DNA of 64,000 nucleotides from a virus, in the IMG/VR virus record IMGVR_UViG_3300045988_039444; one strand, given 5' to 3'. Position numbers and translations under genes: made by a program. Positions 1,321 through 61,552 of this stretch are shown piece by piece; position 1 is the first letter of the stretch; every line of letters begins with the position of its first letter. The notes below the pieces were generated by a model. The model saw only the letters and a program-made list of their open reading frames with translations. It was not told the DNA's origin and searched no databases.

Positions 1321-1410
1321 CTTGTGTGGGCCTCGCTCCGCTCGGCCTTTCGGGTGCTCCGCACCCTCACCCGGTGGGGGAGTGGGTTGGACGCCCACTG
1401 GCGACACCAT
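1321..1410. repeat. GC-rich composite element copy 1 (R orientation: hairpin GGGTGC-TCC-GCACCC + core CCCGGTGGGGGAGTGGGTTGGACGCCCAC)
   Basis: GC-rich island in an AT-rich intergenic gap. Core at 1370-1398 matches the other 11 copies. Confidence 0.85.
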
Positions 1411-1551
1411 TTGTAACATCACTTATAACACTTCTATCGTCCAAACTAAATTTTATAGTTGCCCACGATAATTACTATTAAAAATCCTAATAAGATTTAC
1501 TGCAAGTTTACCACGAGTATCTATATAATAAATCTTAATAGTTTTCATAGC

Positions 1552-2535
1552 TTAAAAAAGTGTTTTAGCAGTTTTATAAATATGTTTACTTGAATAATCA
1601 GCAATCATCATTCCGACTTCATTTTTAAGATAAGGAATATCATACATTTCTACGACTTCTTCATCTTCTTCATTTTCGTCTTGAAATTGATTCTGAATAG
1701 TTCTAATATGACAGAGAATAATTCCTACATTTTTATAACCCCAACTCTCAACAAGATTAGCATAAGTAGAAAGTTGCATTGCATAGTGATTACCTATACT
1801 ATCAGCAAGGTGGTCAAGTGGTGCACCAAAATATTCCTCTTTATAAATAAAATTATTGAGGTCAAGTGTACCATCAAGTTTCTTATCATAATAACCACTT
1901 TCAAATCTAATTGGAGCTTTATTAGTTTTCCAGTCTAAAATAATAAATTCCTTATCACGAATTAAGAGAATATCAATAAGACCGGAAACAAGATTTTGGC
2001 TATCATAAACACCAATCTCAGCGTAGATATGATAACCTTTCGTAACAAGAGCAGCAATCAGACTAAATATATCAGGATACTTTTCTCGAATACCAGTCTT
2101 AACAAAATATTCAAGATTTAGCTTACCGTATTTATGACTACCAACAATATCATCTATCGTATAGATTCTATCATTGATAAAACCATTAGCGTTCAGCTTA
2201 TATCCATTACAAGTCTTAATAGCAGTTTCAAGGTAATTATGTTTCTTTGTTCCTTTATCACAAGCCTTAATAGTTTCTTGTTCCCATTCCCAAAGAATTT
2301 GTTTCTTAGTTTTACCTTTATATTTTTGATATTTTGGATGTCGAGGATTCTTACCTATACGTTCACACGCTGCGGCAATTTCTTCCTTCTTAAATTCTTG
2401 CGTATATTTACCAATAAGAGTAGTAACAGATATGTAACCATTACCTAAATCATCTGTGTACTTATGTTCCTCTTCATTAAAGTACAGTATTCTACCCTTT
2501 GGCAAAATCTTTTCTGAAACGCATTTTCTTCCCAT
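1552..2535 (-). CDS. PD-(D/E)xK nuclease, RecB/Cas4/lambda-exo-like
   Basis: Motifs GLIDIL...ILDWKT (D...D/ExK) and a C-terminal QxxxY (AMQLSTY). The first 16 codons of the track ORF overlap the upstream gene, so the likely start is the Met at 2535. Confidence 0.5.
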   Translation of the reverse strand: MGRKCVSEKILPKGRILYFNEEEHKYTDDLGNGYISVTTLIGKYTQEFKKEEIAAACERIGKNPRHPKYQKYKGKTKKQILWEWEQETIKACDKGTKKHNYLETAIKTCNGYKLNANGFINDRIYTIDDIVGSHKYGKLNLEYFVKTGIREKYPDIFSLIAALVTKGYHIYAEIGVYDSQNLVSGLIDILLIRDKEFIILDWKTNKAPIRFESGYYDKKLDGTLDLNNFIYKEEYFGAPLDHLADSIGNHYAMQLSTYANLVESWGYKNVGIILCHIRTIQNQFQDENEEDEEVVEMYDIPYLKNEVGMMIADYSSKHIYKTAKTLF

Positions 2536-2914
2536 CTTCTTCGGCAGTTCTACGTCTACGACGATTAGCAATATGATAAGCAATAATCTTTGCTTTACGT
2601 TCCTCTCGACTTAAACCTTCAAGTTCCTCAGCATGAGTTTTCTTAAAGAACTTAGCTGGACTGTATTCAAATCTACCAACACGAGGAACACTGACAACTT
2701 CATCTCCTCGCATCATAGCTTTGGCAACACTATCCTTTTGTGTTCTTTCTAATAACTCTAATACTTTCGCCTTTTGGTCAGGTCTTAACTTTTCCCAAGC
2801 CGCAACACTTCGTTTATAAGAAGCAGGTCGTCGAAGAACATAAGGTTTAAGATGTTTTTCAATACGTTCATCTACGAAAGGAACTAACTTATCATAAACA
2901 AAAGGATTAAGCAT
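2492..2914 (-). CDS. hypothetical basic protein (Arg/Lys-rich C-terminus; GC-richer than surroundings)
   Basis: 140-aa ORF with an RRRRR tract and composition distinct from flanking genes. Confidence 0.5.
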   Translation of the reverse strand: MLNPFVYDKLVPFVDERIEKHLKPYVLRRPASYKRSVAAWEKLRPDQKAKVLELLERTQKDSVAKAMMRGDEVVSVPRVGRFEYSPAKFFKKTHAEELEGLSREERKAKIIAYHIANRRRRRTAEEDGKKMRFRKDFAKG

Positions 2915-3460: not shown

Positions 3461-3512
3461 CAAGACCTCACGAGTGGGCGTCCAACCTACTCTCCCACCG
3501 GGAGTACACAAG
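3461..3512. repeat. GC-rich element copy 2 (F orientation, core-only variant with small hairpin TACTC...GAGTA)
   Basis: Core GTGGGCGTCCAACCTACTCTCCCACCGGG at 3474-3502. Confidence 0.8.
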
Positions 3513-3699
3513 TTAAAACTAATAAAATCCCTATTAAAAGCTCTTCAAAGTTTACCACTTTTTGCATCACCAGTTTTCCCACCAAAAGAATCAATTTTGG
3601 CGACATTAGTATCTTGACCAGTTGCACTACTAAAATCACTAATTTTTGAACTAATTTTTTCGTTATTAAATTCGTTATTAATTACGTGATTATTTGATA

Positions 3700-7817: not shown

Positions 7818-7860
7818 TTTCGTGATGCTTACAGAAAAGCTAATAAGAAATAAGTTGTAA

Positions 7861-7941
7861 CTGGAGAGGGCTACGCAGCTGGGCTACGCCCAGCCGCTCC
7901 GCTCCCCGGTGGGAGAGGAGGTTGCACGCCCACTTGTCGCG
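7861..7941. repeat. GC-rich element copy 3 (R orientation; hairpin GCTGGGC-TAC-GCCCAGC + core + TTGTCGCG)
   Basis: Core at 7905-7933, immediately upstream of the gene starting at 7959. Confidence 0.9.
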
Positions 7942-10836: not shown

Positions 10837-10915
10837 GCGCGACAAGTGGGCGTCCAACCCACTCCCCCACCGGGTAGCGGAGCGCTGGGCGAAGCCCAGC
10901 AGCGAAGCCGACTTA
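10837..10915. repeat. GC-rich element copy 4 (F orientation; CGCGACAA + core + hairpin GCTGGGC-GAA-GCCCAGC)
   Basis: Core at 10846-10874. Confidence 0.9.
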
Positions 10916-10973
10916 AATTACTACTAAATTAATTCTTAATTAAATACAAATTAAAACTATCTAACATTATGGT

Positions 10974-15557: not shown

Positions 15558-15654
15558 ACATAATCTTATTAATCAGACTGTTTCATCTGATATTTTTAAT
15601 AGTATTAATATTATGTGTAATGCTTGTGAAAGATGTTATTTATCTATTGCTAAT

Positions 15655-15700
15655 CGACGGATACCCGGTGGGGGAGCGGGTTGCACGCCCACTTTGAGGC
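15655..15700. repeat. GC-rich element copy 5 (R orientation, core-only)
   Basis: Core CCCGGTGGGGGAGCGGGTTGCACGCCCAC at 15664-15692. It creates a false N-terminal extension on the track ORF 15613. Confidence 0.85.
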
Positions 15701-15708
15701 GTACTGTT

Positions 15709-16161
15709 ATGTTTGTTGGTGATACACCAACTATTACAGATTATAAAACTCAAACTATATTTAATGGTCGTTCAACTAAAATAGTTAGTCAATTCATTAA
15801 TGATTATAAACTAACTGCTTGGACTATTAAATCAACTCTTATTCAGTGTGTTTGTGCTGAACCAACTGAACATTATGCTGAAACTTGTTATCCAAATTTT
15901 ATAGCAACTATTAGGAAATATAAACCTACTATTATTGTTGCTGTTGGACAATTTGTTTATCAGTTCCTTAAAGAAGAAAAATATAAAAGTATGGCATCAG
16001 TTGTTAATAAACCAGTTAGGTTTAATGATGCTATATTAATTCCTATATATTCACCAACCTATATTATGCGTAACAAATGTTATTCAGAATATGTTAAATC
16101 TTTTAATTTAATTAGTGACATATTTGCTGAATTATGTAAAGAATATCGTTATTACAGATAA
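15709..16161 (+). CDS. uracil-DNA glycosylase superfamily protein (family 4-like, divergent motifs)
   Basis: MFVGDTPTITDYKTQTIFNGRSTKIV aligns with the UDG family-4 motif A region (VGExPGxxEDxxGxPFVGxxG). C-terminal PIYSPTYIMRN resembles HPSxLLRN. Start moved to the Met after the repeat. Confidence 0.5.
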   Translation: MFVGDTPTITDYKTQTIFNGRSTKIVSQFINDYKLTAWTIKSTLIQCVCAEPTEHYAETCYPNFIATIRKYKPTIIVAVGQFVYQFLKEEKYKSMASVVNKPVRFNDAILIPIYSPTYIMRNKCYSEYVKSFNLISDIFAELCKEYRYYR

Positions 16162-23350: not shown

Positions 23351-23469
23351 AATGCTAAAATTAGACTTGTTGTTATACCGTATTTTTGGCCGATTTCCTT
23401 TGATTTGACAGACTGTATTTAATAGACGTATATCAGTATAGGTCAGGTAAATACACGCGGCCAGAAACG

Positions 23470-23550
23470 TTGCCAGTGGGCGTGCAACCTGCTCCCCCAC
23501 CGGGTAGCGGAGCGCTGGGCGAAGCCCAGCAGCGAAGCCCAGCAAGTTAC
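23470..23550. repeat. GC-rich element copy 6 (F orientation; core + GCTGGGC-GAA-GCCCAGC hairpin)
   Basis: Core at 23476-23504. It forms the false N-terminal extension of track ORF 23470. Confidence 0.9.
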
Positions 23551-23562
23551 ACTACTGATTAC

Positions 23563-25024: not shown

Positions 25025-26353
25025 ATGATTCCTAATGAAGTTTTATATAAACGAGATTTAACTGGCGGTTTAGTTCGTTGGTGGGGTCGAGTTGAAAAAG
25101 TTACTAATTCTGACGGTACAGTATCTCTACGATTAGCTTATTATTATGGTAAAGTAAATGGTGCTGAAACATCATCTTATTCTCCTGTAATTAAAGCTAA
25201 GAGTAAGAAAACTGATAGAGAACAAGCTGAATTTGAGCTTAAAAGTGTTTACGAAAGACATAAGAAACAAGGATATAAAAGTCTTTCTGATTTAGGTATT
25301 AGTCCTTTAGATTATCTTACTAATGCAGATGATTTATTTGCAGAAATAGATAAGATATTACCTAAATATAATACTGATGCAAATAATTGTGTTAAACCTA
25401 TGAAAGCACAAAAATTTGCCATTGGTAAGTTTGATTATCCTTGTATTGCTCAACCTAAAATTAATGGTGTTCGAGCAGTTGTTATGCTTGAAGAATTTAC
25501 ACCTACTGATTTATTCAGTCTTGAAGGTTTTGTTCGTGATGATAAACATTATCATACTGTAATTAAAACTAAAGAAGGTCTTACTTATCGTATTTGGCAT
25601 ATTGAGCAACTATTTAATGATTTTTATAATAGTTTTCCTGAATATGCTAATATGGTATTTGATGGTGAGATTTATATTCGTGGTGAGAAAGTAACAAGCA
25701 TTGGTGGAGCTGCTCGTAATCCTCGAAATCCTATCCATGAAAAACTTCAATTTGTTAATTTTGATTTAAGTATTCCCGATTTAACTAATAAAGACCGTGA
25801 TAAATTAAGGTTTAGTGTTTGGGAAGAATATCGTAGTAAGAAAAGTAGTGTATCTCATAATGTAATGACTGGTAGAATTTGGGAAAATTTAACTCCCGAA
25901 GGTCATGGTATGTGGGATAAATTTAATCTTATTATTCTTAATAGTGATACTATTTATGATGATAATCAAGCGTTAGCTTATATGCAAAGATGCATTGATT
26001 GTGGCTTTGAAGGAGCCATAATTAGAGATTTGCATACTGAATATAAATTTGGTTCTCGTCCTGCTACAATGATGAAACTCAAAAAGTTCGACGATGCTGA
26101 ATTTGAATGTATTGGTGTTGAACACACTGGAAATCCTGATGATAAAATAGGATTTAATGTTAGATTAGTTCTCAAGAACGATATTAATGATTTAGTATTT
26201 AGTTGTACTTTAACTGGTACTGTTAATGAACGATTAGATATTCTTAATAATCCACCTATCGGAAAGTCTGTAACTGTTAAGTTCTATGAAAGAACTAAAA
26301 ATGGTTTACCTTTCCATGCAAACGTTGTTGGAATTAGAGATTATGAAAAGTGA
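25025..26353 (+). CDS. ATP-dependent polynucleotide (DNA) ligase
   Basis: Nucleotidyltransferase motifs: I KINGVR (Asn in place of the usual Asp), III FDGEIYI, IV EGAIIRD, V MMKLKK. Confidence 0.65.
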   Translation: MIPNEVLYKRDLTGGLVRWWGRVEKVTNSDGTVSLRLAYYYGKVNGAETSSYSPVIKAKSKKTDREQAEFELKSVYERHKKQGYKSLSDLGISPLDYLTNADDLFAEIDKILPKYNTDANNCVKPMKAQKFAIGKFDYPCIAQPKINGVRAVVMLEEFTPTDLFSLEGFVRDDKHYHTVIKTKEGLTYRIWHIEQLFNDFYNSFPEYANMVFDGEIYIRGEKVTSIGGAARNPRNPIHEKLQFVNFDLSIPDLTNKDRDKLRFSVWEEYRSKKSSVSHNVMTGRIWENLTPEGHGMWDKFNLIILNSDTIYDDNQALAYMQRCIDCGFEGAIIRDLHTEYKFGSRPATMMKLKKFDDAEFECIGVEHTGNPDDKIGFNVRLVLKNDINDLVFSCTLTGTVNERLDILNNPPIGKSVTVKFYERTKNGLPFHANVVGIRDYEK

Positions 26354-27636
26354 TGAAAACTGTTGGAACTATTACTGAAATACTTGATTTATTCTATAAT
26401 AAAGTAGATGATATAAGTATTCATACAAAACATACCGTTGCAAATGGTAAATATGGTTATGAATTAAAAGATGGTATTCTTTATTGTAGAGGTAAACAAA
26501 TTGGTGTTTGTAATAAATTCGTACCGTTTGTTATAAGACTAAACAATATTGAAGACTATCTTTATATACCACTTGTCAAACTTAAAAATCAAAAGATTCG
26601 AGGTAAAATTAATGTAGATATTTATAATATTTGTAGGGAAAATACTAATATTATATATAATGATATTCATTCTATCCTTTCGGCTCTTTGGTATGGTGTA
26701 AATCAAAATCTTACCGTTACAAGACATATTCTTGAAAAAGATGTTACTAATCAAAAATTTGCTGATGTTCGAACTCATCAGATAAAATATAATAATGCTC
26801 GTAAAGCATGGCGTTCTGCATTAAAAGATATTTTAAGTATTTGTAAAGCACAAGGTATTGATGCTAATAATATTATTAATAAAGCTTATACTTTATATAA
26901 TACTTATGTAGAATATAAAGGTTTTAGAAAAATATATAATACATTTAATACAACAATTAATCTTAAAAATAATATTTGTATTACTTTAAGTCCTAAACAA
27001 AATCTTATTATTAGCGGTAAAATTCTTTATTGGCAAACTATTCGTGCTAAAAAAGTTATATTACCTTATTGTAAAAATTATACTGAATTTAAGAAACTTT
27101 GGAATAATAGAACTACTCGAAAAGAACTTAAATCTATTATTAAAATTAAATTCAATGAATATCTTGATAATCAGAAAGCTATTGAAGAAGAAAAAGCTAA
27201 AAAATATCGAGAAGAACTTGAAGTTCTAATTCAAGAATTTAGAGATTATAAAATTAGTAGTATTCCTTATCAATGGCGACAGTATGGTACTTATGCCGTA
27301 ATGCGTTATGAATCAACTAATGGAGTTGTTAGACTATGGAATGATGCAGTTATTAAATTAAAAGATTTCACTGATTTTGCTCATTTCTTTGCTGCTTGTG
27401 TACAAAATAATATTCAATTAAATCGTAAAACTTGTTATAATTATAAAATTCAATTTGGTGGGTATTATATTTGGGAAGTTCAAGCTAATGATTTATGGAA
27501 TGCTATGTGGGGTGGTCAGTGTATTACTATTATGGATGTTATAATTATCTGTAATAGAATAGGAATTAGTCTTGAAGAATATAAAGTAACTCGTAAACAA
27601 TTACTGTCGCAATTTGAGAAGCGACAGGAGATGTAA
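26350..27636 (+). CDS. hypothetical protein
   Basis: 428-aa ORF whose start overlaps the ligase stop (ATGA). Confidence 0.55.
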   Translation: MMKTVGTITEILDLFYNKVDDISIHTKHTVANGKYGYELKDGILYCRGKQIGVCNKFVPFVIRLNNIEDYLYIPLVKLKNQKIRGKINVDIYNICRENTNIIYNDIHSILSALWYGVNQNLTVTRHILEKDVTNQKFADVRTHQIKYNNARKAWRSALKDILSICKAQGIDANNIINKAYTLYNTYVEYKGFRKIYNTFNTTINLKNNICITLSPKQNLIISGKILYWQTIRAKKVILPYCKNYTEFKKLWNNRTTRKELKSIIKIKFNEYLDNQKAIEEEKAKKYREELEVLIQEFRDYKISSIPYQWRQYGTYAVMRYESTNGVVRLWNDAVIKLKDFTDFAHFFAACVQNNIQLNRKTCYNYKIQFGGYYIWEVQANDLWNAMWGGQCITIMDVIIICNRIGISLEEYKVTRKQLLSQFEKRQEM

Positions 27637-27640
27637 CTTG

Positions 27641-33828: not shown

Positions 33829-33908
33829 TATCAATGTTACAACTTTAATTGCTACTATAATTGTTGTTATTATTAATAACGATATTACTAACATAATAAG
33901 TGATACAG

Positions 33909-47234: not shown

Positions 47235-50200
47235 CTAACAAATTTTGTTATTATTGTCATCAATATATTTATCAATAAATTCGATTACATATCCACCGTT
47301 TGAAGATACAACATTTTTCTGATTATTCAAAACATTTTCAGAACTATTTGAAAAAACCTGACCAGTGGGCGTCAAACCCACTCCCCCACCGGGTATTACT
47401 ATGTTCGGGCCAATATCAGAAACATCAAGACTATTAAGTGTTTCAGAATTATTGTCATCAAACGTAATTTCACCGTCATCATCAAGGAAATCCAATTCAG
47501 CTTGAGCTGCTCTTTGATTTTCTGTCAGAGGTACATCAGATGTTTTAATAGGTTCCGTAACTGATAAATTATCATGTGTTGCATCATTTGTAACATTAGT
47601 TTGATTAGTTGTAACTGAGGTTGGCTCCGCTGCTGGGCTTCGCCCAGCGCTCCGCTCCCCGGTGGGAGAGGAGGTTGCACGCCCACTGGTCGGACTTTTT
47701 GCGCGTCGGCTATTCACACTATCCAAACTATTAATTACTATATTTCGTACATTACTAAGTAAACTATTATCTGTAATTGTATCTATACCAATAACAGAAA
47801 GAATTGCATCAATAATTTTATCCCAAAGACTTTTACGTTTCTTGATCTTCGGAGCTTCTTCTACGATAATTCTATTTGCCAAATTAGCAAACTGTTTATT
47901 TGTAAAAGCATAAGTAACTATTTCAGCAGGAGTTTCACTTAATATTTTAAGATATGTACGAAGATAACCAAGTTCAAGTTCAGTTAAATCGCTCTTATAT
48001 TTAGCATTAAATTCTTTAGCGTCAACCTTAAATGCGGTATCATTAATATCGCTAATTAATGTAGCAAGTTTATCGTATAATTCTTTAGAATTAGCTTGTT
48101 GTTCAAAATACTTATGAAGAGATTCATGAGTAATATTAACACCTAAATCAGTAGCAGTAAAATCACGTTTAGTAAGTTTATTACTATTGATAACGATAGT
48201 TTCAGTACCTTTATCATATTGAGCAATTATGAAATCTTGTTTACTCGATAGTTTCTTAATACTGAAATTAGTTTTACCATCAGCATAAATTCTATCATAT
48301 AATTCAGCGATTCTGTTAGCAACATCTTCAGATACAAAATCAGGTATAACACCTAATACCCTAAGACCTGCTACTTTATCATCTGTAATATTAACAAGTT
48401 TTTGATACCAGTTTGTTTCAGTATCACTTGTCATTGAACTTAATGTTGTAATTGCTTTAACAGCAAATTCTTTCGTCATATCTTCTGATTCTCGAATAGG
48501 ATTATCAGAACTTTCAGATTTAAGTTCAAAGAACATTGCAGGTTGAATAGAATCAATAGTATAATTGGTAACAACATTACCATTGGTATCTCTAATTCCA
48601 ATAACACTTGTTGTTAAAGCGCCGGTGTCAAGAATAAAATCTTGCATCGAATCAAATGTTGAAGAAACAGATTTATCAACGATACCTTGTTGTTTAGCCC
48701 AATCAAGTATTTTAGATTTATATTGACCTTTAACTGCTGCGTAACCATCATCTGTTTTAACACCATAAGTATAATGGTCGCCTTGCAATGCAGTAGTAAC
48801 ACTACGTTGCATATTACCATACAGTTTACGGAATAGATTATGATTAAGTAAATCAGTTAAATCTTTACCAGTAATACCTCTTGCTTGCAAATCAATTACA
48901 GCGTAAGTTCCTTTGTTAGATTTACTCTTTTCAATAATACCATTTAATTGAGCAAGTTCTCGTGCTGTAAAAGGACTCTTAGCAATACGAACTTTTGAAG
49001 TAGTTCTATTAACTGGAATTACTCTACGACTTAATCGAAGTTTAACAGGAGTAAATTTATCACCAGATTTAGTATATTCAATACTAATTCTATTGATATA
49101 ACTTATTCCATTTCCAAGTATATTCTTTTTACGAACAACTGTTTGGAAATCTAAATGTTTAATATAACGAGTTTTTCCAGTAGCAGGGTCTGTATTTTCG
49201 TAAAGAGAACTAATGTTAAACCATTCAGCTCCCGGAACTCCACGATTATAACTTGTAATGATAGCTTCTGATAAAGGAGCTAATCGACTACGAATATTAG
49301 CATTGTGAGCTTTAGTTCGAGTCTTATTAGTATCATCTACAAGAGTATACAGACCAGATTTAGCATCAGTCGGAAGAGATGTAAACGTAGCATCTGAAAT
49401 AATATCACTCATAGTTTGAGTAACAAATTCCATAGCAGCTACATTAAACGGTGTATCTGCAACATCACTTACTAAATTACCACGATGTAACGGAACATAA
49501 CTTTTTCCATTTTCACCAGCATTAGCTTGAATTTCAGCATACATTTGGAAATGCCTATCAGATGAAGTAATTTTATCTTCAACAATAGGATTATTAAATG
49601 CAGTGTCAGTAGTAAGTGATGAAACTAACATTAAACCATCAGCATCAGGCTGACGTTGAATAATATTAACAGCAGGTTTACCATTAACTGTAACAGTACG
49701 TTGCATCTCTTCATTTACATTAGCTCGATAACCACTTGAATCGGCAAATGTAATAGGAGATTTATTAATACCTTTTAATACTAAAATTGCAGAACCTTTT
49801 TCTTTAATTTCAGTAACAAGTTTTTGACTTTGAATAAAGTCATTTCCAAGTTTAGTATTTAGATTCTGATAAGCGTTCTTGATTCTAAGTCCATAACGAA
49901 CATAATCATTAAGATTTTTAAGTCTTACGTTATAAAACATAGGACTAATAAGATAATAAACCTTATTTAAATCAAGAGCTTCAATATCAAACGCTTCAGG
50001 ACTAACACCTTCGACTTCGGTATTATATTGGATAGCTCCAATAAAAGCATTGATTATTTCAGAATGTTCAGTTTTTGATGTATTACCATATTTATCTAAT
50101 TCTTTAATAATTGATTTCAGTTTTGAAACAACTGAATCAGAATTTTGTTGTTCACGAGTTAAGGCTTCAGTATATACTTTATAAAACTCTTTTGTTAAGT

Positions 50201-53200
50201 TAAATATTGTATCACTTCCACCAGCTTTTCTGATAATAGTATCTATAAATTTAGATGTTCCATAAGAATTACCAAAAGCAGAATCATATTGATTAACTCC
50301 ACTTTCATCAATTCTACCTAATTGGATTCCATGATAAGTTTCACTATCACCTAAACCAATTCGTTCAATTAATAGTTTCTTACCATTTACATCTAAATTG
50401 ACATCGACATTACCATCTTTATAAATAACTTCAAATTCCTGACCTTCGTGTAAAGTTCTTAAAGCATCAAATAATTCAGTAGCCTTGAATTTAACACCAT
50501 TAACTGTAATGTTGTTCTTAATAACACGAGTTTTAGGATTATAATATTCAGGACTTGTGATAATCTTATAAACTTCAGGTGTAAGACGACGTAAACCTTT
50601 GAAACCATTAGTTTCAAATTCACGTTGAATATGAGTTTTGAAGAAATCACTTAAAAACTTACCACGAAGATTTAAGTTACTATCAAGATAAGCACCGTCT
50701 GTTGTTTGAATAGGATTAGCAATTCGTTTATTAATAATATCAAACAAACGTTTAAGAGCATCAAGTTGTTCTTGTGGAACACCATTCTTACTCATTTGTT
50801 GATATATTGTATTAACATTTACATCATTTTTAAAATATTTAAGTGCATACCAGATAGGTTCATAATATTTGATAACATCATTACGACCATCTGTTTGCTG
50901 ATATATAGAATCAAGAATATCTTCGTAAGTATAAACGTGATTATCAGTAAATATCTGACGACCATCGAGTTTTACAATAGTATTTTCAATAGCATCAAGA
51001 GCATTACGCATTGAATCACTAATATAATAACGATAGTCATTAGTATTAAACTCATCTCTCGATTCAGTATCATCTATAAAGTCAGAAACACTGTTAGCAA
51101 GTACATCAAGACTATTAAGAATAGATACATCATCGTTTAATTCAGTACCACTTTCAAAATTATAATATCTCGAAAGAATAGAATAAGCCATTCGAGCATT
51201 TCTTAATAAATCAAGAACATTACTTTGACGAACAGCAGTAATAACATCCACACCAGTAAGATTCAAAGCATCAACATCAGATACCAAATAAGGTTGAATT
51301 GATTGAGCTAATGTATGAAGTCTTGTACGAGCAGGAAGATTAGGAACAGCACCATATTCTAAAAACTCTTTTGCTAAATTATTTACGGCAGTAGCAAATT
51401 CCATAATTTTAGAAGTTTGACTACCAAAGCCATCATCATTTACAAGAGCATCATGTAACGGACTATCTTCATCTTGTCTAATAGCACGAATTTTACTAAT
51501 AAATCTATTCATCACACTATTAATATATGCGATATTAGTTTTGTAAAATTCAGTTGTACTTTTAGCTACTTCATTAATAATACTATTTTTGAATAGAGTT
51601 ATCTTATGATAGAAATTTGAATATCTAACAGTATCAAAATTACTATTAAGATTTTCAAATTTAATTTGAGTAAGACCTTCAATTTGTGCTCGAATTACAT
51701 TATGGTCTACATTAATATTCTTAAGAGTTAATTTACCATCAGTTATAATATAATTATTGTTAAGAACATTAGCAACGTTAGCAATATAGTCAGTAATAGC
51801 TTCACGCATTTTAGCATTTTCCTCTTCACTATAACCAACTATATCACCACCGTAAAGATTCCAAATCCAATCTTTGAAAAGATTAGATTTAAGATTATTT
51901 GCAATACGGATATTGCTATCTGATAATAACTGTTTTACACGATTAGTTTTTTCTAAATTTTCATTACTAATTTCAGTAGGTTGATATTCATTTATCCAAC
52001 CAATAAAATTACCAATAATAGTAGTTCGTAACGTATTAAGTTCAGTATTATCAATAGGAGATAATAATGCTTTATAAGTATCACTATTAGAATCAGATAA
52101 TTCTTTATACAGATTTATAATAGTATCTAAATAATGATTCTCAAATTTATCTGCTGAAAGTTTATCTTGAATACTATAAAGTGTTTTATAAATAGCATCA
52201 AATTTAGTTTGAACTTCACTTCGAATTTCAGTAATATCCATACCTGCAAGTTCTTTTGCAGAATATGTATCTTCTTTACCAGTCGAATCATCTTTTATAG
52301 TAACCATTACAGCATTAAAATCGGTTTCGTCGTCGGTTACGACCTCGATTCTTTGCACGGTTTTGGGCGATTCTGCGACATTAAATTTTGAGCCTACCGA
52401 ATATACCTTATTTTTAATATCGACGGTATTTGGGGCCTCGCTGTCATCGAGAGAGTACGAAATCCCGTTACTGTCTGTTAGCACCTCGGTAGTAACATTT
52501 TCGGGTTCTTGACTTGCTTCTTGATTAGTAGTTTCAGTAGTTTCTTCTACTTTATCTTTAGCTTTTTCAATCTCTTCTTGTTTATCATAAACTTCTTTAA
52601 GTAACTTACTTCGTTCAGCCATAATCTCATCTCGATTATTAACATTTTCTTCGAGAGCCATTACAGCCATACTCAGTTGAGTTCGAGCTTCTTCAAGAGA
52701 TTTATATGTTTGATTATTGTTATTGCGAGTTTCACGCAAACGTTTTGCAGCTTCATTATATTCAGCTACATTGTTATTTTCACGTTCACTCTGTTTTGCA
52801 ATATCGCTATTAATTCTATTAAGTCTTGCATCGTAATCAGCTAAATCATTTTCAAATAATTCAATCTTCCTACGAGTATCAGCAATCTCACCATTATGAA
52901 TAGCAAGTTCTTGTTCGTATTGAAGTTTACCAACTTCTAATTCTGCAATAGCTTGACGAGCATTTGCAATTTGTTGTTGAAGACTTAAAATAGATTTCTT
53001 ACTATTTTTAATTTCAAGAAGATAAGGTTTACGAGCTTTACGATTAGGTTGTTTTGTACTAATAGCACCTTGATTAGCAATATAAGTATTTAACTCATCA
53101 ATTTGAGATTGTAAACCATTGATTGTATCTTCAATAGTTTTAATCTTATTTACTAATCGAGTACGCTTACCTTTAAGTGTACTAATCGCTTTATTACGAG

Positions 53201-55211
53201 TTTTATCTTCAAGCTGAGTTTTATAATCTTCAATAACTTTTTGCAGTTCTTCACGTTCTTGTTCAAGAACAGTTTTTTCTACATTTAAACTATGAAGTTT
53301 ACTATCAATAGCTTTAAGGGCTTCATCTCGTTGCTTACGAAGATTAGACGCTTCAATATCGAAAGTTTGAATATCAGTATCAACGATAGCTAATTGACGA
53401 CGATAATAGTCAAGTAAATAATCATCAGTTGATGCCTGAACTTTAAGAACATTGTCGAAAGGATTACCCCAACTTAAACCCATATTACGAGCATGAATAT
53501 CTCGCATAATAGTAAATTCTCTACGAAGAGCATCTACGACAGGTCGTTTATTAGCACCGTAAACTTCTTCAAGTTGAGCATCTGATAATTTACTTAATTC
53601 ATCAAAATATTCAACAGCATAATTGAATCCATTAGCAGAACCAATTCTACCCATAATACCAACAAGTAAATTTGAAGCAGGGTCAGTAATAGTTCTATTA
53701 ACTTTCGGAGTACCATCATTATTCATAACTTGATTACCAGCTTCATCTAAAACTGGTATTTCAGTTACTTTAATATTCATATCACCGTCAAAATCAGCAA
53801 TAGCTGCGGCAGTATCTTGAATACCATTTATAATGTTAGTAGCTCGCTTATTTTCAGCTTCTTGTTGAGCTTTACCATTAAGTATTCGTGTAACACCACT
53901 ACGTCCAGCAGACATTACACCACCACCGATAGCACCCCAAATAAAACTATCCCATGAAGAAGCTTGTTCAACAAGTCTTCCCATACGAGCTAACGGAGTT
54001 AAATCAGCAGTTTCATCTTCAATTCCAAGTTCTTTCTTTGCGGCAACGACACCTTCATTAAGTGCCATATCAACTCGCATTTCTTCAAGACCTTCAGATA
54101 AAGCAACAGAAAAGAAATCTTTTGTTTTACGAAGTCCAATACTCGGAATAAGTTTACGATTAAGTTTAGATGCTTCACTATCTAAAACAAAAGTCTTACC
54201 TTGTTGTGCAAGACCTTTTATATTACTTCTTAAACCCTTTTCAATAGAAATACTATTAACTGGAGCTTCTCTAATACCACGAAGCATACTATTGAGTTCA
54301 ATAGCATTAAATAATACTCCATAAGCCCAAGCATCATTGTAACTTTCAGAAGCATAAACAGATGCAAACTTACGAGCATCATCTTCACTGAAACCTAAAT
54401 CGAGAGCATATTGATATTGTTCATCATAACCACGAACAATTTCTTCCATACTATCGAGATGTGCTCCGTATAAAGTACCAATTATCTGTTGAGTATAAGG
54501 ATTTTGTAATGCACGACCTGCTTTATTCAATGCAGAACCTAAACGGCCAACACCGTTAATCATGGTTCCTAATTTACCAACAGCTTGTAAAGCTCGCATT
54601 TGTCCAATAACAGGAAGCATAGATGCGGCCGCAGAACCTACGGTAGGAAACATACTTGCCCACCAAGTAGCATCACCCATACCACCAGCAAAACCACCTT
54701 TTTGAGCTTGTTCTGTTTGATAAATAGGAATTGCTTTACGACCCCAATTTTCAATATCTTTACCTATTCTCTGCCATTCAGAACCAAGACCTTCGTTGAT
54801 AGCTTTGTCCCATTTATATTTGGCATTATCATCCCATATTTGACTAATAGCACGATATGTAGTAGGAAAGAAATTAAGAATACTACCAATACCAGTAATA
54901 GTACCACCGAAAATAGTAGTTCCTAATTGACCAATAGCATTTTTAGTTAAATACCAACCACTTTGATTTTGTGCTCTATTTTCGTTAAGAACACTTAAAT
55001 CAAGATTAGGATTAACTTGACCTCGACCTAATATATTTTCGTATTCAGAAATATTAAAAGGTCGAATTGAAGATTGTTTTGCACCACGAGCTTTTTCTAT
55101 TTCCATGCTCGGTAAAACAGGAGTAGCTCCTACTCCAGAAACTTGTGTTTCAACCGGAGTAAGAGCTTGAGAACCTGTAATAGGAATCTTAATATCTGTT
55201 AAATTTGGCAT
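47235..55211 (-). CDS. giant virion-type protein (2658 aa) with canonical-looking DFDGD motif, long central coiled coil; candidate RNAP catalytic subunit or ejected/tape-measure-like protein
   Basis: AAAIADFDGDMN is encoded at 53781-53798 (cf. RNAP beta-prime NADFDGD). There is a ~500-aa heptad-rich segment. Its stop lies 3 nt before the start of the 4392-aa gene. Confidence 0.85.
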   Translation of the reverse strand: MPNLTDIKIPITGSQALTPVETQVSGVGATPVLPSMEIEKARGAKQSSIRPFNISEYENILGRGQVNPNLDLSVLNENRAQNQSGWYLTKNAIGQLGTTIFGGTITGIGSILNFFPTTYRAISQIWDDNAKYKWDKAINEGLGSEWQRIGKDIENWGRKAIPIYQTEQAQKGGFAGGMGDATWWASMFPTVGSAAASMLPVIGQMRALQAVGKLGTMINGVGRLGSALNKAGRALQNPYTQQIIGTLYGAHLDSMEEIVRGYDEQYQYALDLGFSEDDARKFASVYASESYNDAWAYGVLFNAIELNSMLRGIREAPVNSISIEKGLRSNIKGLAQQGKTFVLDSEASKLNRKLIPSIGLRKTKDFFSVALSEGLEEMRVDMALNEGVVAAKKELGIEDETADLTPLARMGRLVEQASSWDSFIWGAIGGGVMSAGRSGVTRILNGKAQQEAENKRATNIINGIQDTAAAIADFDGDMNIKVTEIPVLDEAGNQVMNNDGTPKVNRTITDPASNLLVGIMGRIGSANGFNYAVEYFDELSKLSDAQLEEVYGANKRPVVDALRREFTIMRDIHARNMGLSWGNPFDNVLKVQASTDDYLLDYYRRQLAIVDTDIQTFDIEASNLRKQRDEALKAIDSKLHSLNVEKTVLEQEREELQKVIEDYKTQLEDKTRNKAISTLKGKRTRLVNKIKTIEDTINGLQSQIDELNTYIANQGAISTKQPNRKARKPYLLEIKNSKKSILSLQQQIANARQAIAELEVGKLQYEQELAIHNGEIADTRRKIELFENDLADYDARLNRINSDIAKQSERENNNVAEYNEAAKRLRETRNNNNQTYKSLEEARTQLSMAVMALEENVNNRDEIMAERSKLLKEVYDKQEEIEKAKDKVEETTETTNQEASQEPENVTTEVLTDSNGISYSLDDSEAPNTVDIKNKVYSVGSKFNVAESPKTVQRIEVVTDDETDFNAVMVTIKDDSTGKEDTYSAKELAGMDITEIRSEVQTKFDAIYKTLYSIQDKLSADKFENHYLDTIINLYKELSDSNSDTYKALLSPIDNTELNTLRTTIIGNFIGWINEYQPTEISNENLEKTNRVKQLLSDSNIRIANNLKSNLFKDWIWNLYGGDIVGYSEEENAKMREAITDYIANVANVLNNNYIITDGKLTLKNINVDHNVIRAQIEGLTQIKFENLNSNFDTVRYSNFYHKITLFKNSIINEVAKSTTEFYKTNIAYINSVMNRFISKIRAIRQDEDSPLHDALVNDDGFGSQTSKIMEFATAVNNLAKEFLEYGAVPNLPARTRLHTLAQSIQPYLVSDVDALNLTGVDVITAVRQSNVLDLLRNARMAYSILSRYYNFESGTELNDDVSILNSLDVLANSVSDFIDDTESRDEFNTNDYRYYISDSMRNALDAIENTIVKLDGRQIFTDNHVYTYEDILDSIYQQTDGRNDVIKYYEPIWYALKYFKNDVNVNTIYQQMSKNGVPQEQLDALKRLFDIINKRIANPIQTTDGAYLDSNLNLRGKFLSDFFKTHIQREFETNGFKGLRRLTPEVYKIITSPEYYNPKTRVIKNNITVNGVKFKATELFDALRTLHEGQEFEVIYKDGNVDVNLDVNGKKLLIERIGLGDSETYHGIQLGRIDESGVNQYDSAFGNSYGTSKFIDTIIRKAGGSDTIFNLTKEFYKVYTEALTREQQNSDSVVSKLKSIIKELDKYGNTSKTEHSEIINAFIGAIQYNTEVEGVSPEAFDIEALDLNKVYYLISPMFYNVRLKNLNDYVRYGLRIKNAYQNLNTKLGNDFIQSQKLVTEIKEKGSAILVLKGINKSPITFADSSGYRANVNEEMQRTVTVNGKPAVNIIQRQPDADGLMLVSSLTTDTAFNNPIVEDKITSSDRHFQMYAEIQANAGENGKSYVPLHRGNLVSDVADTPFNVAAMEFVTQTMSDIISDATFTSLPTDAKSGLYTLVDDTNKTRTKAHNANIRSRLAPLSEAIITSYNRGVPGAEWFNISSLYENTDPATGKTRYIKHLDFQTVVRKKNILGNGISYINRISIEYTKSGDKFTPVKLRLSRRVIPVNRTTSKVRIAKSPFTARELAQLNGIIEKSKSNKGTYAVIDLQARGITGKDLTDLLNHNLFRKLYGNMQRSVTTALQGDHYTYGVKTDDGYAAVKGQYKSKILDWAKQQGIVDKSVSSTFDSMQDFILDTGALTTSVIGIRDTNGNVVTNYTIDSIQPAMFFELKSESSDNPIRESEDMTKEFAVKAITTLSSMTSDTETNWYQKLVNITDDKVAGLRVLGVIPDFVSEDVANRIAELYDRIYADGKTNFSIKKLSSKQDFIIAQYDKGTETIVINSNKLTKRDFTATDLGVNITHESLHKYFEQQANSKELYDKLATLISDINDTAFKVDAKEFNAKYKSDLTELELGYLRTYLKILSETPAEIVTYAFTNKQFANLANRIIVEEAPKIKKRKSLWDKIIDAILSVIGIDTITDNSLLSNVRNIVINSLDSVNSRRAKSPTSGRATSSPTGERSAGRSPAAEPTSVTTNQTNVTNDATHDNLSVTEPIKTSDVPLTENQRAAQAELDFLDDDGEITFDDNNSETLNSLDVSDIGPNIVIPGGGVGLTPTGQVFSNSSENVLNNQKNVVSSNGGYVIEFIDKYIDDNNNKIC
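47361..47400. repeat. GC-rich element copy 9 (F orientation, core-only) embedded in-frame in the 3' end of the 2658-aa gene
   Basis: Core at 47365-47393, translated as PGGGVGLTPTG. Confidence 0.85.
47620..47695. repeat. GC-rich element copy 10 (R orientation; hairpin + core) embedded in-frame in the 2658-aa gene
   Basis: Core at 47658-47686, translated as SPTSGRATSSPTGERSAGRSPAAEP. Confidence 0.85.
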
Positions 55212-58236: not shown

Positions 58237-58274
58237 AATTTTATAATGATTAGTTTGTAAATTAGTTGTAACTC

Positions 58275-58352
58275 GTATGGCTCCGCCTGCTGGGCTTCGC
58301 CCAGCGGCTCCGCTCCCCGGTGGGGCAGGAGGTTGCACGCCCACTTGTCGCG
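58275..58352. repeat. GC-rich element copy 11 (R orientation; hairpin + core + TTGTCGCG)
   Basis: Core at 58316-58344. Confidence 0.9.
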
Positions 58353-61400: not shown

Positions 61401-61467
61401 GAGAATACTCATTAATATAACGAGTAACTTGACGAAGACTATCAGGATTAACTTTACGATTAGACAT
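58450..61467 (-). CDS. repeat-containing virion protein (1005 aa) with glycine-zipper TM segment and five CGG[LM]VR[RK]KR-x-GG motifs
   Basis: Repeats CGGLVRRKRKDFGG, KFGGLVGTPRRKFYWGG, KLGGMVGRRKLNTGG, RCGGMVRKKRPFGG and a C-terminal ACGGLARRKRA. A duplicated ~50-aa block (IYANMQNKINNE...). A TM-like GAAVGGTAALATGAAAGSWLGPIGAGIGALIGGIVGLF followed by KKKRQEERRRQ. Confidence 0.8.
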   Translation of the reverse strand: MSNRKVNPDSLRQVTRYINEYSQHIWDNELTGDKEFVRVKENNKLKTVRSRSKDGKYYYPYASYEGGAKTIGPGFKLNDTSDFTKSVKAKGKATRKQIDAELNRRMAKAYNDVRDIYSEKYGIDDFNTLPQPIVNLMSNLAYRVGRTGFRQYKKLLKGANERNTDSIIKEYTTGNKRRDKSELEIFKTNSSNDYDMIRNKLFSNFNTDDNPDNYVEDMSKTNRKKYNFGGIRSTHDATADYLGMARNSGNSFFGNGMIDLLYHGGKNDDTGIPVKNYVDKLIANDKLIYANMQNKINNEIVTARGVARCGGLVRRKRKDFGGVMSGDAYRSIIAGKNNRDYFENEGVGIKRKHLSDVYEYGNLDLNAQGIAKANQLMARDSAIYANMQNKINNEVLTSRGITAKFGGLVGTPRRKFYWGGTSINDPGSVQWGTRVQTSDIDESKYSADGEGIVGGSALSGAGTGLGIGAAVGGTAALATGAAAGSWLGPIGAGIGALIGGIVGLFTGRKKKRQEERRRQELLAEQAEMERQQTLGNMQDKVENDVATIRQSNLGNYSEGTGFYAKLGGMVGRRKLNTGGQVVPNSSNSVVAYGQTHEQYNPATGETGIIYGDSEIEGGGAKNGRMYAGEVVRETSEGGQVFSDTIKVPGTNRTFADYAKKLTDMKGKKEAQVIQLADGVTLSLSALDKSKTNKLQTGTNIRNIEKLVYKMNKARGESEAIDTKTADLFEAQELYATALGLRDDAPIMRCGGMVRKKRPFGGYASPYSLTGVSAPKLTTLPPIQTTASAGGGSAFKFGFNEFGLGMNLASSLFGIVGNALNTRANRKAIEFESTLHVPKGNKVDAVQYSTDYDISEELQELGTQERRAARYITDNTSNVQTARNSVANLAINAQLARNKLYGAKKDYQRQRYDLNRQERVNARNVNSQIMYQDAINEYNKAVGLNQQLMAVRTQGLQGMLQGVEGLAGAVNNYASARLYEKLWPRGVTNHMRSGFACGGLARRKRA

Positions 61468-61487
61468 ACCATTAAAAGTTTGAGTAA

Positions 61488-61552
61488 CACGACAAGTGGG
61501 CGTGCAACCTCCTGCCCCACCGGGGAGCGAGGCCGAAGGCCGAGCCGCACAA
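61488..61552. repeat. GC-rich element copy 12 (F orientation; core + GGCC-GAA-GGCC hairpin)
   Basis: Core at 61496-61524. Confidence 0.9.

Follow-up and report, generated by a model that had tools for sequence, protein, structure and literature searches.

The window, by which we mean the whole 64-kb stretch of phage DNA that was analysed, has a GC content of 31%. It was searched with the core pattern CCCGGTGGG-N8-TTG[C/G]ACGCCCAC, allowing at most two mismatches; 12 matches were obtained, compared with none in 100 shuffles. The cores start at 1370+, 3474-, 7905+, 10846-, 15664+, 23476-, 27681+, 33776-, 47365-, 47658+, 58316+ and 61496-. An earlier note on this DNA had listed 12 GC-rich copies. 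All of them were recovered, with core positions that agree with its element starts, and they constitute a genuine family and not, as it had already argued, products of drift. Nine copies are full elements of 73-90 nt and 62-71% GC, carrying the hairpins previously assigned to them, and the remaining three (3474, 15664 and 47365) are core-only copies of 37-51 nt. For the variable 8 nt at the centre of the core, the four variants given in that note were found, plus GGAGCAGG and AGAGTAGG. The copies and their surroundings are the following:

1317..1406, + strand: full element with GTAAC end, hairpin GGGTGC-TCC-GCACCC, core 1370-1398 and tail; the leftward gene 647..1300 starts (ATG at 1300) 17 nt downstream, the mRNA sense strand being the C-rich strand ("R-type")
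3466..3516, - strand: core-only copy, core 3474-3502, TTAACTTGTGT end retained; left edge of a divergent, iteron-rich intergenic region (3.5-4.1 kb); positional counterpart of copy 1763 of Kahucivirus cr127_1
7857..7941, + strand: full element, hairpin GCTGGGC-TAC-GCCCAGC, core 7905-7933; ATG 7959 lies 26 nt downstream
10838..10921, - strand: full element, core 10846-10874; ~20 nt past the hairpin and T-run ending the tRNA unit, ~50 nt before ATG 10974
15664..15700, + strand: core-only copy, in-frame codons 18-27 of a family-4 UDG gene (15613..16161)
23468..23550, - strand: full element, core 23476-23504, tandem GCGAAGCCCAGCA; between terminator 23307-23336 and the primase ATG (~23575)
27633..27717, + strand: full element, core 27681-27709; GTAAC end contains the stop codon of gene 26350..27636, thyX ATG 32 nt downstream
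33768..33840, - strand: full element, hairpin AGCCC-TTC-GGGCT, core 33776-33804; begins 3 nt past the last rightward gene, with terminator 33915-33946 ~75 nt further
47357..47393, - strand: core-only copy, read in frame (PGGGVGLTPT) at the C-terminal tail of ORF 47235..55211; the ATG of a 4392-aa ORF follows at 134 nt; inverted partner of 47658
47611..47694, + strand: full element, core 47658-47686, in frame as SRRAKSPTSGRATSSPTGERSAGRSPAAEPTSV within ORF 47235..55211
58268..58352, + strand: full element, core 58316-58344; between the hairpin and T-run after a 1005-aa gene and the ATG (~58236) of a 1042-aa gene
61488..61560, - strand: full element, hairpin GGCC-TTC-GGCC, core 61496-61524; TTGTAAC end holds the stop codon of gene 61564..63768, ATG 61467 29 nt downstream

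Position of the elements relative to genes

Of the 12 cores, eight or nine fall between genes, against ~92% coding sequence in the window as a whole (P ~7e-7). The intergenic boundary placement previously described therefore stands as an enrichment, but it is not "almost exclusive", since three of the 12 copies lie in frame within genes (one in the UDG gene, two in ORF 47235..55211). The copy believed to be upstream of the UDG-like gene is actually located within it, at codons 18-27, whereas those reported after the tRNA-unit terminator and upstream of thyX are where they were said to be. Each gene block of the window has an element at its head, 16-60 nt away from the first ATG and oriented in either sense; with respect to transcription, about half of the copies point each way. 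The order terminator, element, gene is found at 10846, 23476 and 58316.

Canonical terminators, consisting of a hairpin and a T-run and separate from the elements, were located at 22394-22420, 23307-23336, 33915-33946 and 33994-34026. In the window copies the mini-hairpin lacks a trailing T-run on both strands, and the class of intrinsic terminators was rejected on this basis. The orientation-dependent promoter or terminator role proposed earlier does not agree with copies that face both ways, lack a T-run and have separate terminators adjacent to them. Host-type TAnnTTTG boxes are found elsewhere, and on either side of elements. A test for pairing over long distances between forward copies and their reverse partners gave a negative result (P =.41). 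T4-type PeSL cassettes and lambdoid boundary sequences are likewise conserved short sequences at phage module boundaries; unlike them, the elements show no enrichment of strain recombination breakpoints.

Architecture of the core and the mini-hairpin

One strand of each element presents a pyrimidine tract and, after it, (C)AC(C)GGGG; in the window this takes the form CCTCYYCCCACCGGG, lengthened to a 29-nt core. In composite copies the core is followed by AGCGGAG, then by a mini-hairpin of the form C(GNA)G, then by GGAGCG. As end motif, (T)TGTAAC is conserved, and GTTACAAC occurs in the window adjoining elements only. The mini-hairpin, which is the sole palindrome in the element, is optional, being missing from 3/12 window copies and from most copies of crAssphage LMMB. 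It is also the only structure with compensatory-change support: its 10 stem sequences, 4-7 bp long, are all perfectly Watson-Crick paired, and at site 58268..58352 a strain-level compensatory change converts GCTGGGC/GCCCAGC to GCTGTGC/GCACAGC. Of 73 hairpin variants, 72 have a GNA loop on the same strand, and the closing pair is C-G throughout; loops are GAA in 46 cases, GGA in 8, GCA in 9 and GTA in 9, the central base being a pyrimidine (GCA or GTA) in 18/73.

The 5-bp stem that had been proposed to form between GTGGG and CCCAC found no support, as these sequences are invariant in the window and change to GTAGG/CCCAC or GTAGG/CCCGC, uncompensated, in relatives. A second predicted hairpin is likewise devoid of covariation support, and flank and variable centre do not covary. 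When the predicted three-way fold was evaluated, native combinations of flank and centre (-13.35 kcal/mol) folded no better than swapped ones (-13.86 kcal/mol), and a structured RNA was rejected on the basis of both the missing compensatory changes and these folds. A known RNA family was also rejected: Rfam 15 yields three tRNAs only at the gathering threshold and chance matches only at E <= 10.

Conservation and concerted evolution

An empty site was seen in none of 114 site observations (114/114 occupied), nor in 27/27 obtained from protein-search loci; every copy is thus conserved throughout the sampled strains, and all window sites are retained in a species ~86% identical. The UDG copy is present in 15/15 loci retrieved by UDG protein search. 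Nucleotide-level constraint acts here within coding DNA: in the core codons, identity at positions 1/2/3 is.79/.78/.79 with an amino-acid identity of.54, while outside them the values are.79/.83/.68 and.69.

The copies evolve in concert. Within a genome, all of them carry the same lineage-specific core substitutions, and whole variants are exchanged between sites within the species, the flanks remaining ~95-98% identical. Within the species, the primase site (23468..23550) shows at least six variants of the core and two types of hairpin, and two distinct core haplotypes exist among strains at site 10838..10921. Between species, orthologous sites differ by gain or loss of the hairpin module; the site at 58316 is core-only in a related species (contig 042075), and copies 47658 and 58316 have ~25 further nt of downstream sequence in common. 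Because within-genome copies carry the same lineage-specific core changes, a phage-specific trans-acting reader is plausible, and with it the putative phage-protein binding site that the earlier note had considered among other possibilities.

That note had also considered a MITE-like element; a recently mobile one is not favoured by the data. The 5' end, GTAACTTGTGTGG, does not match the reverse-complemented 3' end, CGCGACAAGTGGG, so that terminal inverted repeats are missing. Target-site duplications are in a similar situation: ACTYGT direct repeats flanking several copies are not callable as such because empty sites are absent. A Pfam scan of 30 window proteins, in a stretch where many ORFs are unannotated, detected no transposase, HUH or Y1 domain. 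For REP/REPIN sequences, we looked for an imperfect palindrome, a GTAG/CGTC head, a flanking RAYT gene and high copy number. The conserved unit is instead the non-palindromic 29-nt core, no RAYT-like domain was found in the 30 proteins, and GTAG occurs in relatives only (CCGGTAGG), away from the hairpin.

Motif families in other crAss-like phages

Kahucivirus cr127_1 has 10 copies of a core that differs from that of the window; six or seven of its sites match the window in position, all in relative orientation, and this synteny holds at 35% UDG amino-acid identity. Its UDG gene contains the cr127_1 core in the same place and with the same length as the window copy, and the inverted pair 47365/47658, whose members are both in the tail of a 2658-aa virion protein, has its equivalent at 42034/42229. 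The arrangement of terminator, element and primase ATG is common to five lineages. Statistically, homology of sequence cannot be demonstrated between the cores of cr127_1 and the window. Judged from these sequence comparisons, the motif family is old.

Alignment revealed motifs with the same architecture as the window elements in crAssphage LMMB (30 copies, 20 of them within CDS, distributed over both strands and several reading frames) and in crAss002 (29 copies). A further 19 copies are present in cr271_1, 11/19 within genes. The LMMB, crAss002, cr271_1 and cr127_1 families are either homologous or analogous to that of the window. crAss001 and positions 1-50 kb of phi14:2 yielded no such motif family, and some sites are limited to one genus. 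In four of five genomes the orientation tends to alternate between neighbouring copies (P =.033,.012,.048 and.0019), and in LMMB the copies are spaced more evenly than random (P =.0015); spacing regularity was seen neither in the window nor in cr127_1. The LMMB PolB copy sits within a 19-aa insertion, and the coding copies in the primase of LMMB and cr271_1 replace residues and are not inserted. Annotated genomes with the family list no DnaB-type helicase; crAss001 and phi14:2 are annotated with DnaB-type helicases. These phages also possess Gp157-family genes, annotated in database records as Gam-like nuclease inhibitors.

A proposed strand-specific DNA signal

We are slightly inclined to consider the elements a selected, DNA-level, strand-specific signal. 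As the best explanation overall we propose, tentatively, that they are the local version of an ancient strand-asymmetric DNA signal family of the Intestiviridae and Crevaviridae, the confidence given to it being a compromise between that in the general claim and the lower one in priming. It is doubtful, although possible, that the motifs act as ssi-like (single-strand initiation) signals at which the phage DnaG-family primase would prime.

In the mechanism proposed, a lineage-specific phage factor would read the motif as DNA, most likely single-stranded, and the signal would be required on both strands over the entire genome. Copy-to-copy gene conversion and selection would together hold all copies to the genome's own consensus. 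The phage DnaG-family primase might start at the motifs in the manner of ssi signals, and the mini-hairpin might exclude SSB from the site. The long GC-rich composite form would be tolerated solely at gene-block boundaries or in flexible protein linkers, which could explain why the window copies are at gene-block boundaries. Recognition of ssDNA, the primase as reader and the link to DnaB absence are elements of the mechanism that we infer.

GNA mini-hairpins are known from the G4 and RSF1010 ssiA priming signals and from N4 promoters (PMC13037366). Like the window elements, G4 oric and RSF1010 ssiA/ssiB are strand-specific and join a conserved sequence to a mini-hairpin of the C(GNA)G type; in both cases signals exist on both strands, as an inverted pair in RSF1010 (PMC13037366). 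The G4 and RSF1010 signals are read by primase on SSB-coated DNA (PMC13037366), whereas here priming is what we infer only. With regard to the ssi type, GNA lies on one defined strand in 72/73 hairpins; the many hairpin-less copies, in the window and above all in LMMB, are a difference. Known ssi signals number one or two per replicon and lie at the origins of ssDNA phages or plasmids, in contrast to 10-30 copies in a ~95-kb dsDNA phage. Primases of dsDNA phages normally use trinucleotide sites, which counts against priming, as does the fact that the DnaB correlation comprises 5 vs 2 genomes and is confounded with phylogeny.

Chi, DUS/USS and KOPS resemble the family in being short motifs, uniform per genome, with a co-evolving protein reader (here putative), located within genes in any frame and also between genes, where they often form close inverted pairs. 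They are, however, chromosomal and 5-12 nt long, whereas the motifs studied here are phage-borne, lineage-specific, 13-29 nt long and sometimes hairpin-extended.

Alternative explanations

A selfish non-autonomous repeat, comparable to REP/REPIN, Rickettsia RPE or organellar GC clusters and of no benefit to the phage, is the alternative that survives best, and we consider it unlikely. Copy-to-copy conversion, or else a nuclease or transposase acting in trans, would keep it, and it would be tolerated only between genes or in flexible protein loops. REP/BIME/REPIN, RPEs and GC clusters are also GC-rich, hairpin-forming, present in both orientations, intergenic or in frame within genes, and homogenised within the genome; GC-rich, modular hairpin units in an AT-rich genome have organellar precedents in particular (PMC4478555, PMC2800124). 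Gene conversion alone can yield concerted evolution, and the ectopic replacement at the primase site, the hypervariable centre and the gain or loss of the hairpin module point in the same direction. So do the sites confined to one genus, the ACTTGT-like direct repeats that flank several copies and the LMMB PolB insertion, which fits past mobility. Even the alternating orientation could be accounted for by selection against direct repeats. Against such a repeat stand the absence of empty sites, also between species ~86% identical, of the strain-level insertion polymorphism expected from mobile GC clusters, of terminal inverted repeats and, in the 30 window proteins scanned, of transposase, HUH, Y1 or RAYT domains. 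Six or seven syntenic sites persist at 35% UDG amino-acid identity, the UDG copy holds the nucleotide sequence of the core while the encoded amino acids vary, and the primase copies replace residues. Moreover, the conserved part is the non-palindromic core and not the hairpin, and random insertion predicts neither the even spacing in LMMB nor the alternation in four genomes.

Punctuation of transcription units appears less probable still. The core would then be a putative dsDNA binding site for a phage factor (an activator, insulator or roadblock), or a structured 5'-leader or intercistronic RNA element. This would also fit the elements at the head of gene blocks, including the gap between intrinsic terminator and primase start codon in five lineages, the terminator, element, gene order at three sites and the intergenic enrichment. 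It is difficult to reconcile with the mixed orientation relative to transcription, the TAnnTTTG boxes lying elsewhere and on either side, the hairpins devoid of a trailing T-run and the location within genes, irrespective of strand and in various reading frames, of two thirds of the LMMB copies and 11/19 of those in cr271_1. An RNA role is further disfavoured by the negative pairing test, the flank that does not covary with the centre and the lack of an Rfam family match. T7-like 23-nt promoters and N4 hairpin promoters are similar in forming a near-identical site set per genome that differs between related phages, but they are intergenic and all co-oriented with transcription. A T7-like set was rejected given the half-and-half orientation in the window and the 20/30 LMMB copies in CDS.

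We regard as improbable a Chi-like or self-recognition signal for host AddAB/RecBCD or for a phage PD-(D/E)XK nuclease acting with RecT, which would be direction-specific and needed both ways along a linear genome. The density of about one copy per 3-7 kb, in both, alternating orientations and evenly spaced in LMMB, would suit it, as would tolerance within genes in any reading frame; CCGGTGG in the core resembles the E. coli Chi sequence, GCTGGTGG. Nevertheless, the conserved length of 13-29 nt greatly exceeds that of known Chi sites, the motifs differ by phage lineage, crAss001, which also infects Bacteroides, lacks any, and the Gp157-family genes of these phages are annotated as Gam-like nuclease inhibitors.

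N4-type hairpin promoters, in which a virion RNA polymerase recognises an extruded GNA-loop hairpin for early transcription, are very improbable. Stems of 4-7 bp with 3-nt GNA loops recall N4 promoters, the crAss virion RNAP is active in vitro on denatured DNA only, and phi14:2 has no known early promoter motif. Yet N4 stems measure 5-7 bp with a central purine in the loop, a position occupied by a pyrimidine in 18/73 variants here. Many copies are hairpin-less, and N4 vRNAP has no relationship to the crAss RNAP, which is a two-barrel enzyme. Copies in both orientations, in every module including late and virion genes, and three in window ORFs, likewise go against this class and against an N4-type set of early promoters. 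Lastly, invasion by a host-derived MITE is considered extremely improbable in view of vertical inheritance, synteny across phage genera and families, and the lack of terminal inverted repeats.

Significance

Among the viruses of the human gut, crAss-like phages are the most abundant, and hardly anything is known of the signals that govern their replication and gene expression. No account of the motif family was found in the crAss-phage literature searched, in keeping with the earlier remark that no equivalent had been described in these phages. A short, strand-specific motif, sometimes with a very stable mini-hairpin and present at ~10-30 copies per genome, is apparently undescribed. With respect to annotation, the motifs account for odd Gly/Ser/Thr/Pro-rich protein inserts and for spurious ORF calls through GC-rich intergenic elements, and as lineage-specific sequences they are possible typing markers. 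As crAss002, with 29 sites, is cultured, the proposal is testable now.

Conserved at 10-30 copies per genome, the motif would be the first genome-wide cis-signal described in the Intestiviridae and Crevaviridae, one that constrains nucleotides even in essential genes, alternates in orientation and co-evolves within the lineage. It is conceivable, if rather unlikely, that these families, including prototypical crAssphage, use genome-wide, approximately even, strand-alternating primase start signals that replace DnaB-coupled priming and co-evolve with the primase. If true, this would represent priming of the G4/ssi type on the scale of a ~95-kb dsDNA genome.

The GC-rich elements and their position relative to genes

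A pattern search with the core CCCGGTGGG-N8-TTG[C/G]ACGCCCAC returned 12 matches in the window at ≤2 mismatches and none in 100 shuffles, reproducing the list of element positions given in the earlier note. Upon oriented alignment, nine of the 12 copies (named here by core start) were full elements of 73-90 nt and 62-71% GC, against 31% GC for the window; those at 3474, 15664 and 47365 consist of the core only. A full element reads from a (T)TGTAAC end through a GC mini-hairpin with a 3-nt loop, GCTCCGCTC and the 29-nt core to a tail such as TTGTCGCG. In degenerate form the motifs can be written CCGGTRGG-N8-TTNNACGCCCAC and CCTCYACGGGG. The only Rfam matches in the window were three tRNAs, with nothing credible within any element. 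GC islands at 4806, 13089, 22300, 23178, 33991 and 59981 were rejected as decayed copies, their sequences being unrelated to the elements. The elements may resemble the ops sequence of RfaH (CGGTAG), Chi of E. coli and the consensus of phiKMV nick sites.

The sequence GTTACAAC is found in the window solely beside elements; as it is confined to these flanks and the longer motif is not enriched, GTTACAAC/TTACA boxes were rejected as a general promoter. TTACA-N7-TT(A/G)CA boxes, with a 12-nt period, occur seven times in the window (0.78 expected). Two sets come immediately after elements and adjoin start codons, and two triple sets lie in large intergenic regions.

TTACA-N7-TT(A/G)CA boxes in the window
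1304-1320, minus strand
3880-3908, plus strand
6139-6167, minus strand
23547-23563, plus strand
58589-58605, minus strand

The genes at 1-3.5 kb and 34-64 kb point leftward and those at 4-34 kb rightward, so that the mRNA strand is G-rich in about half of the copies and C-rich in the other half. Of the 12 cores, eight or nine fall between genes in a window that a crude gene model scores as ~92% coding (P ~7e-7). The earlier note had placed the elements almost exclusively in intergenic gaps at boundaries; the intergenic enrichment stands, but three copies are translated inside genes. Copy 15664 forms codons 18-27 of the family-4 uracil-DNA glycosylase (UDG), between its CxxC and MFVGD motifs, while copies 47365 and 47658 are in frame in the acidic C-terminal tail of a 2658-aa ORF (47235..55211), immediately before a 4392-aa ORF. 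Inversion of the 264-nt segment between these last two was discarded as a protein-varying switch, since the inverted frame carries stop codons.

Each gene block of the window is headed by an element, in either orientation, 16-60 nt from the first ATG. At 10846, 23476 and 58316 a hairpin with T-run comes first, then the element and then the start codon; no T-run was seen after the own hairpins of the window copies. Two terminators oppose each other at the convergence of the rightward and leftward blocks, and the ~75 nt of AT-rich sequence between element 33776 and the first of them could be a small transcript. An insertion that is missing in strains such as L040 and in the related species adjoins the primase-upstream element.

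Features beside elements
33915-33946, plus strand: terminator, canonical hairpin and T-run
33994-34026, minus strand: terminator, canonical hairpin and T-run
23371-23466: 96-nt insertion containing a Bacteroides-type -7 box (TATTTTTG at 23381)

Stability and concerted evolution of the elements

Many IMG/VR contigs belong to the same species (95-98% identical). Element sites were occupied in 114 of 114 covered site observations among these contigs, and two further copies outside the window bring the whole genome to 14. Loci found through their proteins, not through the motif, were likewise occupied (UDG site 15/15, primase-upstream site 12/12). A species ~86% identical to the window (contig 042075) keeps all sites; there, most cores read CCGGTAGG..., the commonest hairpin is GGCC-TTC-GGCC and the 58316 site is core-only. 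More distant relatives, with UDG 65-73% identical, retain four sites, two of them ahead of the small-gene block and of the primase, one behind tRNA-Leu and one within UDG.

Each of these relatives has substitutions common to all its copies (TTACAC in L127, GCCCGC in L125). The primase-upstream element is replaced wholesale between same-species strains whose flanks are ~95-98% identical, one version being identical to the 61496-type copy, and within the species at least six cores and two types of hairpin occur there. Taken together, the lineage-shared substitutions, the full occupancy and the wholesale variant swaps indicate ectopic gene conversion.

The UDG copy shows identities of.79/.78/.79 at the three codon positions across lineages and an amino-acid identity of.54; the rest of the gene shows.79/.83/.68 and.69, the usual third-position relaxation. 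Because identity is equal at all codon positions and amino-acid identity is low, the constraint on this copy acts on the DNA sequence, not on the protein.

Same-species contigs form a recombinant mosaic, with sharply bounded segments 8-30% divergent on a 1-3% background (for example at 3.7-6.3, 17.1-18.0, 26.4-27.4, 32.4-33.6 and 55.0-56.6 kb). Breakpoints lie mainly within genes, away from elements. Elements were rejected as recombination junctions between strains, as about 5 of 100 identity breakpoints fell within 100 nt of an element and about 4 were expected.

A strand-defined mini-hairpin

The mini-hairpin is the sole supported structure of the elements. Among 73 distinct hairpin-bearing variants there are 10 stems, all perfect Watson-Crick and all with a C-G closing pair. 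The loop is GNA in 72 of them (GAA 46, GCA 9, GTA 9, GGA 8) and invariably lies on the complement of the earlier note's core strand. At 58316 a compensatory double change, from GCTGGGC/GCCCAGC to GCTGTGC/GCACAGC, segregates within the species. The d(C-GNA-G) mini-hairpin is extraordinarily stable; in nature it is known from priming signals (G4-type and RSF1010 ssiA) and from promoters of the N4 virion RNAP (PMC13037366).

Other structures fared worse. The GTGGG/CCCAC stem proposed earlier shows no compensatory changes in relatives. From a predicted three-way fold, the triloop hairpin alone survives, the second hairpin lacking covariation. Native combinations of the variable centre with GCTCCGCTC pair no better than swapped ones, and folding z-scores of the elements are modest. 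Long-range pairing of forward and reverse copies around gene cassettes, in the style of RNase III excision, was rejected, since partner cores are no more complementary than random pairs (P =.41).

Comparison with phage cr127_1

Near and distant INPHARED DNA searches with the window sequence gave no close relative. The window PolB is 54% identical to that of the uncultured phage cr127_1 (Crevaviridae, Kahucivirus), and gene order corresponds to a crAss-type replication module: SF1/PIF1 helicase with a LAGLIDADG intein, UDG, PolB, SNF2 helicase, primase, ligase and thyX. There follow a dNMP kinase, a Gp157-family protein, DUF932, dUTPase and an N4 gp49-like protein, and then giant leftward virion/RNAP genes.

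Further features of the window
3746-4010 and 5661-5788: iteron-like clusters of tandem repeats (12, 15, 24 and 36 nt), placed in the intergenic region where the leftward and rightward blocks diverge and in the gap at 5.6-6.4 kb
10490/10498: site directly upstream of tRNA-Leu where relatives have ~370 extra nt (contigs compared: L037, L038, L123)
13038-15557, plus strand: PIF1/SF1-type helicase gene; insertion at about 13241-14288 is an intein with LAGLIDADG homing endonuclease (Pfam LAGLIDADG_3, Hom_end, Intein_splicing, Hint_2)
60342-60554: indel relative to several same-species contigs, inside the 1005-aa gene; the region is GC-rich and Gly/Ala-rich and matches a glycine-zipper Pfam family

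The helicase insertion (~1048 nt) is missing in same-species contigs L041, L063 and L074, and the helicase of relatives has 487 aa. The iteron-like clusters may mark an origin or regulatory region; comparable 12-nt repeats occur in cr127_1 at 1.8-3.5 kb and about 82.2 kb. The window tRNAs are tRNA-Gln, tRNA-Thr and tRNA-Leu only; in L123, which is more distant, the tRNA cluster also includes a fourth tRNA (Ile-tat) and an HNH-endonuclease ORF. Overlapping BLAST segments suggest that the 60342-60554 indel may be a repeat-mediated duplication or deletion.

In phage cr127_1 the dispersed repeat is a different one, ...TTCGGAACACCTCTCGCCCTTGTGGCCA..., with 10 copies. Six or seven of them match window sites, and relative orientation agrees at all: the iteron-region edge, the UDG 5′ region (inside the gene), before the primase, the rightward-block end, the inverted pair in the giant-ORF tail and one structural-block site. 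In both phages the core runs into a TTACAAC tail. Five lineages have the same arrangement ahead of the primase: a stop codon and a terminator, then 10-40 nt to the core and another 24-60 nt to the ATG. The L211/L182 lineage keeps the half-core CTGCTCCCCTACCGGG alone, both there and in UDG. An nhmmer profile of the window-type core gave no match in cr127_1 and reached the L211/L182 half-cores at E ~0.1-0.2 only, a result by which statistical homology of the two cores was rejected. The link between them is positional, not statistical, resting on synteny, orientation and the common tail.

At 28692-28885 of cr127_1 (L121), between dUTPase and the next gene, an inverted element pair surrounds 146 nt of AT-rich tandem repeats plus a hairpin, a layout similar to that of an origin with flanking inverted signals.

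Motif families in other crAss-like phages

A generic scan for dispersed k-mers revealed G-rich motifs in three other genomes, in both orientations and with many copies within genes. The earlier note knew of no described equivalent in crAss-like phages: the literature searched holds no account of such repeats (including the papers devoted to crAss-like genomes, PMC7886860, PMC11054128 and bioRxiv 10.1101/2020.03.07.982082), but equivalents are present in cr127_1 and in these three genomes. The same scan gave no dispersed-motif copies in crAss001 (L217+L218, Steigviridae), nor in the first 50 kb of phi14:2 (L223, Steigviridae).

Motif families found by k-mer scan (all Intestiviridae)
cr271_1 (MT774394; L215+L216): CTCTTCTACGGGGGAGC, 19 copies
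crAssphage LMMB (MT006214; L219+L220; Carjivirus, the genus of prototype crAssphage): CCATCCTCYACGGGGRGT, 30 copies
crAss002 (MN917146; L221+L222): CCTYTAYGGGGGA, 29 copies

In LMMB, 20 of the 30 copies lie within genes, where both strands and several reading frames are used; the 10 others are intergenic, some as close inverted pairs. The LMMB PolB copy falls within a 19-aa insertion relative to the window PolB, and the motif occupies the same codons (LYGG) in the primases of LMMB and cr271_1, with length unchanged. Composite copies in LMMB and crAss002 align with window elements on the GNA-loop strand (alignment A7), in the order pyrimidine tract, (C)AC(C)GGGG, AGCGGAG, mini-hairpin with GAA, GTA or GAAA loop, GGAGCG.

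Opposite-orientation neighbours exceed chance in four of the five genomes. As regards spacing, gaps in LMMB reach 7.1 kb at most, whereas the largest gap in simulations had a median of 12.5 kb (P =.0015); the result for cr271_1 is borderline (P =.047) and the remaining genomes are not significant.

Neighbouring copies in the same orientation
Window: 2/11, P.033
LMMB: 8/29, P.012
cr271_1: 5/18, P.048
crAss002: 6/28, P.0019
cr127_1: 4/9, P.5

Discussion

The family is real, old and vertically inherited, nucleotide-constrained and homogenised within genomes, with a mini-hairpin of defined strand. Two crAss families carry it, both within genes and outside them, in alternating orientation. The best-fitting reading is a DNA-level signal with strand specificity that is needed on both strands throughout the genome and that a co-evolving factor reads.

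A selfish, gene-converting repeat is a serious rival to this reading, favoured by conversion among copies, the modularity of the elements, their genus-specific sites and the LMMB PolB insertion. Alternatively, in the window lineage the elements may have a transcriptional role, given the striking placement at gene-block heads and the elements lying between terminator and start codon. Among the options raised in the earlier note, classical promoters or terminators are excluded because orientation is mixed and copies lie inside genes, and a recently mobile MITE by the lack of both empty sites and terminal inverted repeats.

Returning to the strand-specific signal, the five genomes with motif families have an SF1-helicase/PolB/DnaG module, and no DnaB-type helicase was seen in the annotations and Pfam scans examined for them, whereas the two genomes in which no family was found, crAss001 and phi14:2 (first 50 kb), are annotated with DnaB, a contrast of five against two genomes that is small and confounded with phylogeny. 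From this helicase distribution, the mini-hairpin precedent and the alternating (in LMMB also even) arrangement, we infer that the motifs may act as single-strand initiation (ssi)-like priming signals for the DnaG-family primase.
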